A stretch of DNA of 63,792 bases, filler included, from Octopus bimaculoides (taxonomy: Eukaryota), in the NCBI RefSeq assembly GCF_001194135.2. It is 6 parts of 5 records of this genome, joined end to end, with 100 filler letters (N's around TTAATTAATTAA, not from the genome) between each part and the next. Parts side by side here need not be neighbours in the genome. Positions count along the whole stretch, not along the records: positions 1 to 22,772 come from NC_069000.1; positions 22,873 to 29,811 come from NW_026310629.1; positions 29,912 to 54,633 come from NC_068985.1; 3 more parts are not named here. One strand, written 5' to 3'. Each line of letters opens with the position of its first letter. Positions within the stretch are counted from its first letter, which is position 1. A model generated the notes under the pieces. It did not search any database. It worked only from the letters and a program-made list of their open reading frames with translations, and was not told where the DNA came from. Below, piece by piece: positions 6,794 through 54,521 of this stretch. The position numbers and the translations under genes were made by a program.

Positions 6794-7270
6794 TTCGAGA
6801 GCTGGAGATGTCTTCCTCGGGTTAAAACTGCATCGACGGCGTCTCTTACAGAATACCCACATTAAAGTAGGAATAAACACTACCTTTTGACTGGTGTACT
6901 GCTTCCATCTCAAACATAGATTTTCTAACGGACTAGTTTCCTAGCTACAAAATCAATAATCCTATGACACTGTATTTTCTATATACTGCAAGCGAGGTTA
7001 AACTATTGCCATGCCTGGCAAACAAATGCCCACCACCGAAGAGATCCAATAAGATCGAAATCACGTGTTCTGGTGCTCTCAAACTAGGATGGCAAGAGTT
7101 ATATTCCGCCAGCAATAAATATCGCGTGTGGAAAGTGTACAGAATAAACCAGCTGGAGGAGATGCTTCCTGGGGTTAAAATTGTAGTATCGTCGTAACTT
7201 AGAGAACACCCACATAGCAGTGGAGTATAAACACTGCCTTTTGCTTCGTATACTGCTTCTATTTCAAATG
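6794..7270 (+). mobile_element. Penelope-like terminal-repeat remnant (partial tandem repeat carrying a hammerhead)
   Basis: Diverged ~120-bp direct repeats at 6794-6918 and 7150-7270 (agctggag..atg..ttcct.gggttaaaa...cccacat...ataaacact.ccttttg) flank a hammerhead motif. Related to 27431-27843. Confidence 0.65.
7031..7075 (+). ncRNA. Minimal type I hammerhead ribozyme motif (U4C core variant)
   Basis: Stem I CACCA/TGGTG; core CCGAAGA; stem II GATC-caataa-GATC; GAA; stem III ATCACGTGTT (near-palindrome around CACGTG); cleavage C at 7070. Confidence 0.8.
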
Positions 7271-9021
7271 TGTGTATGTGTGTGTATGTGTGTGTATGTG
7301 TGTGTGGGTGTGTGGGTGTAATATTACATGTACTCACAGACATACGTTTATATGCATAAACATACACGCATATATACGTGCAGACGGTGCTCCAGCATGG
7401 CCGCAGTCAAATGATTGAAACAAATAAAAGAAAAAAGACTCGCGCGCACGCACACATACACTCACACAAATACACGCTCACAAACACGCACGCACGCACA
7501 CACACACACACACACACACACACACACACACACACACACACACATACATTGTAATTAATGTTTTAAAAAGTACTGCAGGAAATTCTTGAAGCCTACATTT
7601 TATGTGTATAACTTTCTTTGAATCGAAAAATTCCCCCTCGTTGTTTCGCCTCCTGCGCCTCTTTATTCAAACATTGCAGCCACCGACATTCCATCATATT
7701 TGCAGATAATTTATCCAGCGCTATATTTTAACGAAATATCCTTTCAAGACGTGTCATTCTCCAACATGATAAAATGTAGTTCTTGTGTCATTTAACTGCT
7801 ATTTCTAACGTTTGGAGTGTCTATGTAGAGGCGTCCTCAGTGGCTAATCCTCGTACCTGGATTGCACTTATCATTTGTTTGTGTCAACATGTCAAAGCTG
7901 AGATCATCAGAATAGCGAAGAGGATACAGACAAAAATGAACAAACAATTTTTGTTATCGCATCATCTATGCTATCGTATATTCTTTCTTTGCCTTAGAAA
8001 CGTTTGATTTGATAAAACAAAATGTATTCCATTTCAGATTTTTCCTGATCAGAACTGCTCGACATCCTTGAGAATGACACACCTTATAGTTATGATATTC
8101 GATTACGGAGACATTTGCAGATAATATGGCGCCTGGCGTGATCGAGCAGTGCAATTATTGTTTGGTGTTGATCAGTGTCCACCAATACTTTCTAGAGTCC
8201 ACCAAAACTTTCTCAACAATTATCAGTGACACCGATCAAGATTTCTTTTTTCTTTTCTTTTTAGTTTTATTATTTTCTTTTTTTCTTCTTTTTTGTTTTC
8301 GTTTGTTTTATTTATCACCTATTTTTTGGGATTCTGTAAATGAAATGTCCGCCTACTGTAAAATGGGAAACACTATTAAACGTGTAAAGGTGGACGTGGA
8401 ACGTAAATGAATAGATAAACATAAGGTAAACTGGAAGATGACATTAGATATACATCTACAGTTGTATATATAGATAAATCTAGTCGTAAAATTTAGCATA
8501 AGTGGCGTGTGTATGTGTTCATCTTCGATACTTGTTACTGAAAAAGACAAAAAACATTAGTCAATAGTTAATAAATCAAGAAGGGTAACTTAATACACTA
8601 TTTCAGAAACAAAGCCTAGGATTTAAGAAAAATTAACAAAGACAGCATCTCACAGGATCTAAATATTTTAGGAGTGGAACGTACAATTTTCTGTAAGTCA
8701 CACTGCCTCATGGATCCAGGAGACAAAACGTGTCAAGGGAGGTGCGGTGGAACAGCCACTGACTAACGGGTCTCGCACTTGCGGATAGCCAACTCTATCT
8801 CGATAGCGGTAAGCAGAGATATGATCTGGGGGCCAAGAACGCTGAAGGTCTTTATTGCCATAAGCTCAACTATAAACTTGTCGATGAGCGAACGACTGAA
8901 TTCTAACTTTGACAAAAGTTCACGAGTTTTAAGGAAAGTATAATCATATAATTAACTCAGATATGGTGACGCAAACGAAAAAATAGAACGCAAAATATGA
9001 GTATATTTATGTTTTTATTAC

Positions 9022-9190
9022 TCTTTAGCAGAAGCAACAGTGACTCAAGGGTCGAGAGTTTGGTGCGTTGGCACTGATTAGACTTTTTGATAAGTTTGAT
9101 AATAGCCAACGCACCAAACTCTCGCACTTGATTCACTTTCAACGCACCAAACTCTCGGCTCTTAAGTCACGCAGTTGCTTCTGCTAAAGA
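9022..9190. mobile_element. MITE-like hairpin with an internal 18-bp duplication
   Basis: 9022-9070 is inverted relative to 9140-9190; caacgcaccaaactctcg occurs at 9107 and 9140; a related fragment lies near 43500. Confidence 0.7.
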
Positions 9191-9969
9191 TTAATAATAA
9201 TGTACATACATTCATACTTTGTGTTCTAGTTTTTTTCCGTTTGCATCGCTATATCTGAGTTAATTATAAATCTATTAATTCGAATTGCATGCGATGAGAT
9301 GTCATTGAAGTTTTGTAAATCTAATATAAATATTTACTAAAGAATGATATCATACTAAAGACCGTCGCCTAATTTCGGTTCATTTATGTTAAACGAATGT
9401 GAGTCAGTCTCCGGTAGCATAAGATAATCTGGTAACTAATGACTGAAAACAGTCACGTGTCATGAGACAATGTCAGAAAACGTATTCTACTTAAAAACAA
9501 AACACTGCACGAAGCATTAGGGACAAATCTATTCCATGATAAAATACTGGTTTTTCTCCGTCTACCTTGGTCTCTCTCGGTCTATCTCACATTGATTCTA
9601 TTTCACTTCCTTATTATTTGTCAGTTAGTTATTACTTAACCAATTAATCCATGTTTGATTAACCGTTCTGTTAATAACTCAATCAGTCATGTTTGCAGAA
9701 ATATTTTCATTGTCATTCGCAACCTAATCAATGGCATGCCCTCTCTACTTCAAATGATTGATCAAACAATCGATTAGTTAATTGAGGAAAGAGTTAGCCA
9801 ATCGACAAATTAATAAAGATGTTAAATAGAACCACCGCGTGCGTTTACTCTTGATACACTGACCCTCCAGTGATAAAACAAAATTTGCTTCAACACACGA
9901 TTTCATATCAAGAATTTTGCAAACAAAATATAAGAACGAAATACTGGTCTATCTCCGGAAACTATATCA

Positions 9970-10302
9970 GTCCTCATAGGAGATGCAGTTAAGGGAGAGA
10001 ACAAGTTCGGTCAGACGAAGAAATGTGGAGGTGTTAGGCTGGAGGTTGGGTCGAAGATCCAGAAATGGTTTCAGTGCAAGAAGTCCTTCGTTGTGTGGGA
10101 TCACCGTATAGAAACTCTTCATATCAAGATTGAAGAGAAGCTTAGAGGGGTCAGAAGGGAAGTAGAAAAAGTTAAAGAGACGGAGAGCATGATTAGTGTA
10201 GTGGATGTGAGAGGGGAGGTAAGCCACTCTGTGTAGGGGGCAAGGACAGGGTTCAGGTATTTAGAGATCCATTCCGTAGGGCAGTTGCAGGCGGAGACGA
10301 TT
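9970..10302 (-). mobile_element. Penelope-like element reverse transcriptase fragment (frameshifted)
   Basis: IVSACNCPTEWISKYLNPVLAP...HIHYTNHALRLF...DMKSFYTVIPHNEGLLALKPFLDLRPNLQPNTSTFLRLTELVLSLNC matches the PLE RT pattern RPIVS.C.CPT / D..SLYT.IPH..GL.AL. Confidence 0.85.
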
Positions 10303-10317
10303 ACATTTTAATATATA

Positions 10318-53339: not shown

Positions 53340-53560
53340 CCTCAAATTTGGTATAGGACGCTATAGCAACCACCGAACTGGACACCACAACATAGTACCT
53401 GAGATCCCGGCCTTTCCGGCTAGAATGAAGAGCCGGTACTCTAACAGCTTAGGTTTCAAGGGCTCACAACTTTTCAACATTCTTACTAATCCAAACAACC
53501 CTTGAGATCTGCGAGGTATAAATGTAGATGTGTAGTTAATGAGACCTCCTCCTTCCTAAA
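53340..53560 (+). mobile_element. CR1/L2-group LINE 3' fragment
   Basis: NHRTGHHNIVPEIPAFPARMKSRYSNSLGFKGSQLFNIL resembles the C-terminal motif (G..C.VP......NSL..RGP.LFN.LP) of these LINEs. Confidence 0.6.
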
Positions 53561-53663
53561 TTCAGGAGTGGCGATTTGAAAGAGAATTGGTTGGTATTTC
53601 TTGCAAAGCAAACACATAGGTGTCCCATCATTAGTCGTATCTGTAAAAAATGTTGACAGACGT

Positions 53664-54105
53664 AGGAGTGGCTATGTGGTAAGTAGCTTGCTCACGAACC
53701 ACATGGTTCCGGGTTCAGTCCCACTGCGTGGCACCTTGGGCAAATGTCTTCCACTATAGCCTCGGGCCAACCAAAGCCTTGTGAGTGGATTTGGTAGACG
53801 GAAACTGAAAGAAACCCGTCGTACATATGTATATATATCTATGTGTTTATGCGTGTGTGTGTGTGTGTGTGTGTGTGTGTGTGTGTGTGTGTGTGTGTGT
53901 GTGTGTGTCCAAACATCGCTTGACAACCGATGCTGGTGTGTTTACGTCCCCGTAACTTAGCGGTTCGGCAAAAGAGATCGATAGAATAAGTACTAGGCTT
54001 ACAAAGAATAAGTCCTGGGGTCAATTTGCTCAACTAAAAGGTGGTCCTCCAGCATGGCCACATTCAAATGACTGAAACAAGTAAAAGAGTAAAAGAGTAA
54101 AAGAG
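53664..54105 (+). mobile_element. SINE A full-length, young copy
   Basis: A-box gtggctatgtgg, B-box gggttcagtccc, internal TA/TG tract, tail (gtaaaaga)x3. Confidence 0.92.
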
Positions 54106-54484
54106 ACGTTCCAGCCGTAGCCATCTTGTCATTAATACACACAGAATAGCTTCCTCACCTTCGACTCCGTTTATTTAAATGAATCTTTCCATAGTTCCCT
54201 AGGCTTTGAAGGATCTCTCTAGTTACCAAATTTCGAGCAAATTTTGAATTCAGTTCATACTTCCACAGTACTTTCACTGCGGCCTATTGTTCTTCGAACT
54301 CTATGTTCATTGCATGCAGATACGATCGTTAATTACATATATGTTGTACTAAAGCATGGGTATATATTGAAATGTATATATGCATGTATCTGCGCGCGCG
54401 CGCGTACATATGTAACTACATGTGGATTGTTGGCGACATTTTTTTCCTCCGTCTTCCTTTTCTTTTGGACTTTCCGCTGTCTCC

Positions 54485-54521
54485 TGTTTATGAAGAAGAG
54501 CTTTGCTCGAAATGTAAAACA
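54485..54521 (+). ncRNA. Degenerate minimal hammerhead motif (relative of 15555-15591)
   Basis: TGTTT ATGAAGA A GAGC ttt GCTC GAA ATGT A AAACA. C3 and C15.2 are mutated; stems I and II are intact. Confidence 0.6.

Follow-up and report, generated by a model that had tools for sequence, protein, structure and literature searches.

Five hammerhead layouts in a window of octopus DNA

Hammerhead ribozyme motifs were analyzed in a 63,792-nt stretch of Octopus bimaculoides DNA (the window), which joins six parts of five records of assembly GCF_001194135.2 end to end with filler letters between them. The window is AT-rich (GC 0.36 outside 8,644 N) and carries many microsatellites and repeats. A first-pass annotation had placed five type I hammerheads here and read their differing stem III palindromes as a possible family-specific dimerization code. 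The five sites, and the repeat copies that contain sites 1 and 3, are as follows.

6800..7268, + strand: first retrozyme-like copy, covering roughly 1.3 repeat units (unit 354 nt); the direct repeats at its ends, 6804-6914 and 7158-7268, are 77% identical
7023..7081, + strand: site 1, type I hammerhead; C3 at 7036, core CCGAAGA (U4C), C17 at 7070; decayed distal stem I, loop 1 TGC/T, stem I CACCA/TGGTG, stem II GATC/GATC with loop CAATAA, stem III ATCACGTGTT
15555..15591, - strand: site 2, minimal hammerhead; C3 at 15586, core CTGTTGA (A6U) with an extra A, C17 at 15560; stem I TCTTT/AAAGA, stem II GAGC/GCTC, loopless stem III ACGT
27426..27845, - strand: second retrozyme-like copy, covering roughly 1.2 repeat units (unit 358 nt), both ends lying in (TA)n; its direct repeats, 27426-27480 and 27784-27838, are 84% identical
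27587..27645, - strand: site 3, type I hammerhead; C3 at 27631, intact core CTGATGA, C17 at 27599; stem I of 6 bp interrupted by a single private mismatch (27596), loop 1 TGT/T, distal stem GTGAT/ATCAC, stem II with a 6-nt loop, stem III ACCCGGGT
49296..49344, + strand: site 4, hammerhead; C3 at 49300, core CCGATGA (U4C), A17 at 49340; 4-bp stem I GTCT/AGAC, 6-bp stem II with A opposite A at its base, stem III ACAGCTGT; set in a stretch of about 185 nt with a (TA)n run on one side and a gap on the other
54485..54521, + strand: site 5, minimal hammerhead; position 3 at 54490, core ATGAAGA (C3A) with an extra A, A17 at 54516; stem I TGTTT/AAACA, stem II GAGC/GCTC, stem III ATGT

A descriptor scan of both strands returned exactly these five motifs, all at the positions reported there, and no others. 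The descriptor allowed at most one core mismatch and called for at least three pairs in stem II, a palindromic stem III of 4-14 nt and at least two pairs in stem I. In its strict form it found a mean of 0.043 matches (maximum 1) in 300 dinucleotide-preserving shuffles (300-nt blocks) against the five observed, and the reversed window gave no match; the descriptor was composed after the motifs were known, so that their significance is somewhat overstated. These results confirm that the five type I layouts are real and well above chance. It is extremely unlikely that some of them, most plausibly those at sites 2, 4 or 5, are chance matches. Such a reading could draw on the loose form of the descriptor, which averaged 0.52 matches per shuffle (maximum 3) and likewise five in the window, and on the folding of sites 2, 4 and 5, which is no better than that of shuffled sequence. 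It is opposed by the strict counts and by the resemblance of sites 2 and 5, whose motif regions (43 nt) are 77% identical and which combine the published extra base after A9, G10.1-C11.1 and ACGT (ATGT at site 5), a joint presence that the descriptor does not demand.

The type I layout, in which three stems join a core CUGAnGA...GAAA...UH that is open at stem I, is present at all five sites as originally proposed, with a wholly intact core only at site 3. Every copy is damaged. Single core substitutions occur in four of the five (U4C at sites 1 and 4, A6U at site 2, C3A at site 5), the palindrome is broken at two (a U-U in stem III of site 1, ATGT at site 5), and stem I of site 3 contains an A-A mismatch. 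U4C reportedly lowers activity in vitro considerably and is still compatible with viroid infectivity (PMC3088659). None of the five has a homologous hammerhead close by on its own strand, with sites 1 and 3 separated by 20.5 kb of the window and sites 2 and 5 by 39 kb, each pair on opposite strands. The window copies are likely inactive relics. Four of the five motifs lie 76-244 nt from a (TA)5+ run, a weak association given that 10-26% of window positions are equally close. An Rfam search of the whole window produced, among the best 150 of 351 rows, only microRNA matches driven by microsatellites.

Sites 1 and 3 belong to one abundant, transcribed repeat lineage

A collinear alignment of some 460 nt joins sites 1 and 3, which have downstream blocks in common and are homologous copies of one head-to-tail repeat lineage of about 355 nt. 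The units, of 354 nt and GC 0.42 at site 1 and of 358 nt and GC 0.45 at site 3, are non-coding and occur as partial tandems. The limited identity of the terminal direct repeats, only 77% and 84%, suggests that both insertions are old. A simple pattern search found no Pol III promoter A or B box in either unit.

Inspection of the two hammerheads reveals a common layout in which a 5-6-bp proximal stem I and a distal stem flank an internal loop (TGC or TGT facing one T), and a four-position stem II carries a 6-nt loop 2. Despite this common layout, the sequences differ in every stem. Tertiary contacts between loop 1 and loop 2 may be inferred at both sites from the secondary-structure layout. Site 1 aligns weakly to the Rfam family Hammerhead_HH9, loop 2 included, at 23.1 bits (E 5e-4 in a 111-base search), below the gathering score of 52. 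Folded as a circle, the site 3 unit reaches a z of -4.2 over 40 shuffles, and four control stretches gave z of 0.1 to 1.7. A near-identical duplicate (26938-27314 and 27787-28174) flanks assembly gaps and takes in the start of the site 3 element; it is likely an assembly artefact.

Two stretches, 27430-27850 and 6975-7115, were compared with sequencing runs (four runs each, five different runs of 24), where the DNA runs of the source animal comprise 1.6-2.4 billion letters of contigs and all contig counts are records, not copy numbers. Stretch 27430-27850 matched 3,627 contig records in X2 (organism A) and 5,950 in X16 (organism B), together with 730 and 693 RNA reads in about 6% of runs X21 and X22. 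Most of the matching sequences are less than 90% alike and thus represent relatives of the site 3 element. Of the 15 joints listed (39 more exist), nine go back by 316-358 nt, as unit-length joints do.

The relatives of site 3 lack the stem I mismatch at 27596, which is repaired at more than 99% of depth in both DNA runs. Loss of four bases from stem I of site 3 was considered and is ruled out, the relatives indicating a single substitution. At 27612, the G-U pair of stem II becomes G-C in 87% and 65%, and loop 2 reads UAAAUA at 65% and 78%. Positions 27624 and 27611 (- strand) show that the base after A9, mostly A or C, faces the A before G12. Among 40 of the 146 difference rows none falls in the core or stem III, which does not in itself prove invariance. 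From 48 RNA reads, a loose-end consensus (agreement 0.7) describes a sister variant with a fully paired stem I and the stem III ACTCGAGT.

Repair of the window copy is visible around site 1 as well, where stretch 6975-7115 matched 114 and 87 contig records (all 25 difference rows). The T of the window at 7068 is rare; A (51% and 55%) yields the perfect palindrome ATCACGTGAT, and G (46% and 39%) yields a U-G pair. Relatives mostly carry G at 7024 and 7026 (78-90%), which lets the distal stem pair again. Core position 4 (7037) is C in 63% and 37% and the canonical U in 37% and 63%, and A9 (7042) is U in 29% and 20%, so that non-standard cores are frequent in this branch. C4 is also found at site 4 (49301), which belongs to a different lineage. 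Such cores may be either active variants or decay.

Minimal hammerheads and a Penelope-like fragment

The first-pass annotation had called all five motifs minimal. This description fits sites 2 and 5, to which the loopless build is limited, and does not fit sites 1 and 3, with their canonical peripheral structure and tandem units of about 355 nt. The minimal motif of Penelope-like elements has no stem III or loop 3 and no defined loop 1. Sites 1, 3 and 4 depart from it, with a stem III of 8-10 nt at all three and a defined loop 1 and distal stem at sites 1 and 3. The published minimal consensus comprises an extra base after A9, G10.1-C11.1 and a palindromic 15.2-16.2 (PMC4209133). Site 2 has the extra base, G10.1-C11.1 and a loopless palindromic 15.1-16.1; site 5 has the first two with a decayed palindrome, and its ATGT is likely a CpG-decayed ACGT, as had been suspected. 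By sequence, sites 2 and 5 would be minimal ACGT hammerheads of the Penelope type already in print, both decayed, and site 4 would be a long-stem-II variant. Beyond the motif, sites 2 and 5 are only loosely similar to each other. Site 4 has no relative within the window, and an Rfam search of it gave no hammerhead match. Downstream of site 2 by 150 nt, 15385-15415 (- strand) contains GAAGA...CGAAA...AAAAC, perhaps a further decayed hammerhead, which fails the descriptor.

Because sites 1 and 3 form one lineage and sites 2 and 5 one motif class, the window would appear to hold three hammerhead lineages at most. A division into five separate families is thus not supported, and the earlier proposal that several repeat lineages coexist in one genome holds.

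A protein-coding trace of a Penelope-like element is also present.

9973..10227, - strand: Penelope-like reverse transcriptase fragment, with no physical link to any hammerhead

The fragment matches two proteins, P0001 and P0002 (two among 64 candidates), the latter at 48% identity over 85 aa (E 7e-16). P0002 in turn matches RVT_1 at E 1.6e-5, under the Pfam cut-off, and visual inspection shows in it a cysteine linker and, close to the end, a YIG motif. The cysteine linker is a mark of Neptune and Nematis elements, and Neptune prefers microsatellites (PMC8557442). The fragment had previously been drawn as 9970-10302; the part at 9973-10227 is confirmed and the extension to 10302 is not. Site 1 is 2.9 kb away from it, on the opposite strand, and Tc1/mariner-like remnants stand between the fragment and site 2. 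A tblastn search of the window with P0001 and P0002 returned nothing but 9973-10227, and nothing beside any hammerhead. The fragment is evidence that Penelope-type elements existed here, not that such elements moved these repeats, and a Penelope-type reverse transcriptase is plausible as the candidate mobilizer that had been suggested.

These observations bear on an alternative in which all five sites are remnants of the pseudo-long terminal repeats (pLTRs) of autonomous Penelope-like elements, the repeat of about 355 nt being a pLTR copied in partial tandem instead of an independently moving retrozyme. Penelope insertions do form partial tandems and prefer microsatellites (PMC8557442), retrozymes and pLTRs are related (bioRxiv 10.64898/2026.07.22.740005), and the reverse transcriptase fragment lies within the window. 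We nevertheless regard this alternative as unlikely. Neither site 1 nor site 3 has a Penelope protein match beside it, the joints in site 3 relatives return by one unit length, and both sites possess the canonical peripheral loops by which PMC7229834 separates retrozymes from Penelope minimal motifs.

Stem III palindromes as a probable by-product of divergence

Palindromy of stem III is kept through compensatory change, which agrees with the proposed selection for a self-complementary stem III. The further proposal, that palindromes were selected as a self-recognition code, co-resident families having drawn apart in stem III to restrict activation to their own kind and to escape cutting or parasitism by other families, is improbable. 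Some predictions and observations do favor it. The predicted energy of stem III homoduplexes is -10.7 to -14.9 kcal/mol where the 8- or 10-nt palindrome is perfect, in contrast to +2.0 to +9.8 kcal/mol for cross-lineage pairs. Within a single lineage, a double compensatory change separates ACCCGGGT in the window from ACTCGAGT in the RNA consensus. Summed depth over the hammerhead is less than a tenth of that in the common flanks, as expected for subfamilies with divergent ribozymes.

Orthogonality of this kind is nonetheless automatic. Among 2,016 pairs of distinct 8-nt A...T palindromes, none forms a complete duplex and 96 come within one mismatch of doing so; since no two different palindromes pair fully, incompatibility between families can arise without selection. 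In a type I double hammerhead, as deduced from its geometry, the stem I strands come from different copies, and cross pairs in stem I among the five sites amount to 0-4 contiguous pairs, never four both ways. Stem I thus already blocks most cross-dimers and stem III adds little. The sister variants ACCCGGGT and ACTCGAGT still cross-pair in part, at -5.0 kcal/mol, and stems I and II are as much changed as stem III. The same palindromes recur in unrelated organisms (ACAGCUGU for Nematostella, ACTCGAGT in the unrelated metagenome locus L107). Tandem transcripts provide a same-family partner in cis, and dimers have been described between tandem copies on one transcript (PMC4209133; PMC6765202). 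Invertebrate retrozyme hammerheads whose stem III has 2 bp plus a tetraloop are reported to cut as monomers (PMC7229834, PMC7761336). Taken with the existence of variants inside one lineage, these points do not bear out a family-specific dimerization code. Stem III specificity likely exists as a physical effect, for which a selected code is not needed.

We give equally little credence to an elaborated version, in which a high-copy retrozyme lineage split into subfamilies, selection for self-only dimer activation drove the stem III palindromes apart as identity tags among competing selfish RNAs, and the non-standard core (C4, unpaired stem II base) works only as a dimer.

A metagenome scan with the layout of sites 3 and 4 returned at least 113 loci. 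Stem I has at least four pairs in 11 of the 113 listed, comprising eight with ACATGT and U-A at the stem II base, one with ACTCGAGT and two that are non-palindromic. None of the loci listed matched the flanks of the window elements. The ACATGT family, with a 6-nt stem III and U-A at the stem II base (L002, L025, L027, L032, L039, L050, L067, L080), lies on contigs that look like eukaryotic host DNA. Stem II base pairing like that of sites 3 and 4 (A-A at 49307/49328 in site 4) is seen as U-A, C-A or A-A in L107, L083 and L092.

Proposed origin of the five hammerheads

We consider it probable that the window contains five separately damaged hammerheads, two in an abundant lineage of about 355 nt that is likely a non-LTR retrozyme and three that are likely truncated Penelope ends, and that their palindromes likely differ by ordinary divergence. 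The observed basis is the homology of sites 1 and 3, the many relatives in two species, the head-to-tail joints, the transcribed relatives and the repair, in relatives, of most lesions of the window copies.

Under this proposal, read-through transcription of intact tandem arrays would yield RNAs that are cut at one place in every unit. Cutting would proceed as monomers where stem III closes (2-3 bp plus a tetraloop), or as a double hammerhead with the next unit of the same transcript. The unit RNA is predicted to be circularized and would then be copied by a Penelope-type reverse transcriptase, giving inserts longer than one unit, often at microsatellites. Dimerization in cis would require stem III to be self-complementary while leaving the identity of the palindrome free to drift, and such drift would render subfamilies mutually incompatible as a by-product.

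Several results weigh against this proposal. The RNA reads over site 1 (37 and 24) represent nearly all one variant, with U9 and G17. A hammerhead with G17 is not known to cleave, and these reads likely come from a single copy that is transcribed but dead. No RNA dataset was listed for the stretch 6400-12600, which says nothing about expression. In the site 3 family the first pair of stem II is mostly A-A or C-A, and this base, like U4C and A9U in the site 1 family, may entail low activity. Read ends show no pile-up at the cleavage positions of site 1 or 3, which fragmented libraries could hide. A whole array of two hammerhead units was not seen, none of the contig pieces listed spanning two units. 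No target-site duplication was found by eye at sites 1 and 3, and the (TA)n at the site 3 ends would hide one. An Rfam search of site 3 gave no hammerhead match, and the site 1 unit, folded as a circle, is no better than shuffles (z -0.8, 40 shuffles). For the long palindromes, stem III alone is predicted at -11 to -15 kcal/mol as a homodimer versus +1 to +3 kcal/mol as a monomer hairpin, so that dimers may be more important than assumed here.

What emerges is a likely retrozyme lineage, of which two related species hold many transcribed relatives, along with decayed Penelope-type hammerheads. The lineage also offers a set of stem III palindromes that arose naturally by compensatory change on a single homologous scaffold, on which monomers, homodimers and heterodimers could be compared cheaply. 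If self-only activation were selected, it would amount to kin recognition among mobile RNAs and could supply orthogonal ribozyme parts; nothing in the present evidence requires selection.

Neighboring elements

Other repeats and remnants are also present in the window. Tc1/mariner-type transposase remnants lie at 2422-2697 and 10481-11300, both on the - strand (DDE_3 at E 1e-10 and 0.003, with weak helix-turn-helix matches), and a 212-codon open frame at 20391-21029 (+ strand) with a weak zinc-knuckle match (E 0.11) is possibly the remnant of a retroelement ORF1. About ten copies of one repeat resembling a short interspersed nuclear element (SINE) measure 250-430 nt, often with an internal microsatellite.

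SINE-like copies: 311-582, 13235-13496, 25382-25651, 25781-26071, 28582-28853
SINE-like copies, continued: 33204-33567, 37793-38180, 53669-54100, 61537-61865, 63126-63565

Long imperfect inverted repeats, resembling miniature inverted-repeat transposable elements, occupy 588-795, 8947-9268, 14476-14624 and 41652-42153, and a relative of 588-801 lies at 55708-55836. An inverted duplicate of 279 nt (31523-31801 and 33067-33345) is 98% identical. Four short open frames on the + strand (23034-23198, 30382-30480, 34383-34637 and 57871-58191) resemble exons of one large gene; none has a Pfam match, and 57871-58191 is also without a homologue. Pairs of 44-N runs with 12 bases between them occur at 22773-22872, 29812-29911, 54634-54733 (spacer 54678-54689, a TTAA repeat), 58573-58672 and 62599-62698, and are likely assembly gap fillers.

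Comparison with known systems

Penelope-associated hammerhead variants reportedly cleave as dimers, to go by the title of Lunse, Weinberg and Breaker 2017. Several palindromes per genome, that of site 4 included, were already published in 2011. Perreault et al. 2011 (PMC3088659, Fig. S8) present palindromes of 8 and 10 nt; Schistosoma and Aedes each have two that differ, and the Nematostella palindrome ACAGCUGU, as it reads in the machine-extracted text of that figure, is identical to stem III of site 4. Family-specific exclusion is neither proposed nor tested in the available portion of that paper. The literature search, in which most papers were judged from their listing, found none that describes cephalopod hammerhead retrozymes or tests cross-family heterodimers; Lunse et al. 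2017 may cover such variants or heterodimers, and the many-species supplements of PMC4209133 and PMC7229834 may hold such motifs.

Sites 2 and 5 resemble the minimal hammerheads of Penelope pseudo-LTRs (Cervera and de la Pena 2014, PMC4209133) in their loopless ACGT, the extra base between 9 and 10.1, G10.1-C11.1, the 5-bp stem I and their occurrence as dispersed single copies. Their stem II has 4 bp versus 7-8 bp in the schistosome motifs of that paper. Site 4 resembles a variant class described there, with a 4-bp stem I, a 6-bp stem II and a small palindromic stem III, and differs in having A opposite A where the published motifs have G10.1-C11.1. Unlike those motifs, sites 2, 4 and 5 each have a core substitution and no adjacent Penelope open reading frame in the window.

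Penelope-derived retrozymes (Li, Clavereau and Pollet 2026, bioRxiv 10.64898/2026.07.22.740005) likewise include many families per genome and many solo monomers, and are traced to Penelope pLTRs; one of nine genomic dimers tested there cleaved. The available text of that work samples vertebrates, insects and one coral, with no mollusc, and its main text does not mention palindromes.

Sites 1 and 3 correspond most closely to the metazoan non-LTR retrozymes (PMC7229834), which are 150-450-bp tandem repeats of GC under 50% with canonical type I hammerheads and circular RNA. Common to both are a non-coding head-to-tail unit of about 355 nt, GC of 42-45%, many copies, transcription, and one type I hammerhead per unit with loop 1, a distal stem, a hexaloop 2 and a 2-3-bp stem III closed by a palindromic tetraloop. 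Units measure 350-390 bp in mussel and 330/350 bp in axolotl (Cervera and de la Pena 2020, PMC7229834), one coral genome holds 16 hammerhead families (PMC7229834), and invertebrate retrozyme hammerheads cleave mostly as monomers (PMC7229834, PMC7761336). Unlike these retrozymes, the site 1 and site 3 families, known here from sequence and reads, frequently have U4C, A9U and an A-A or C-A stem II base. A mismatch at the base of stem II, as in the site 3 family, is found too in the axolotl retrozyme hammerhead HHR_Amex2 (PMC7229834).

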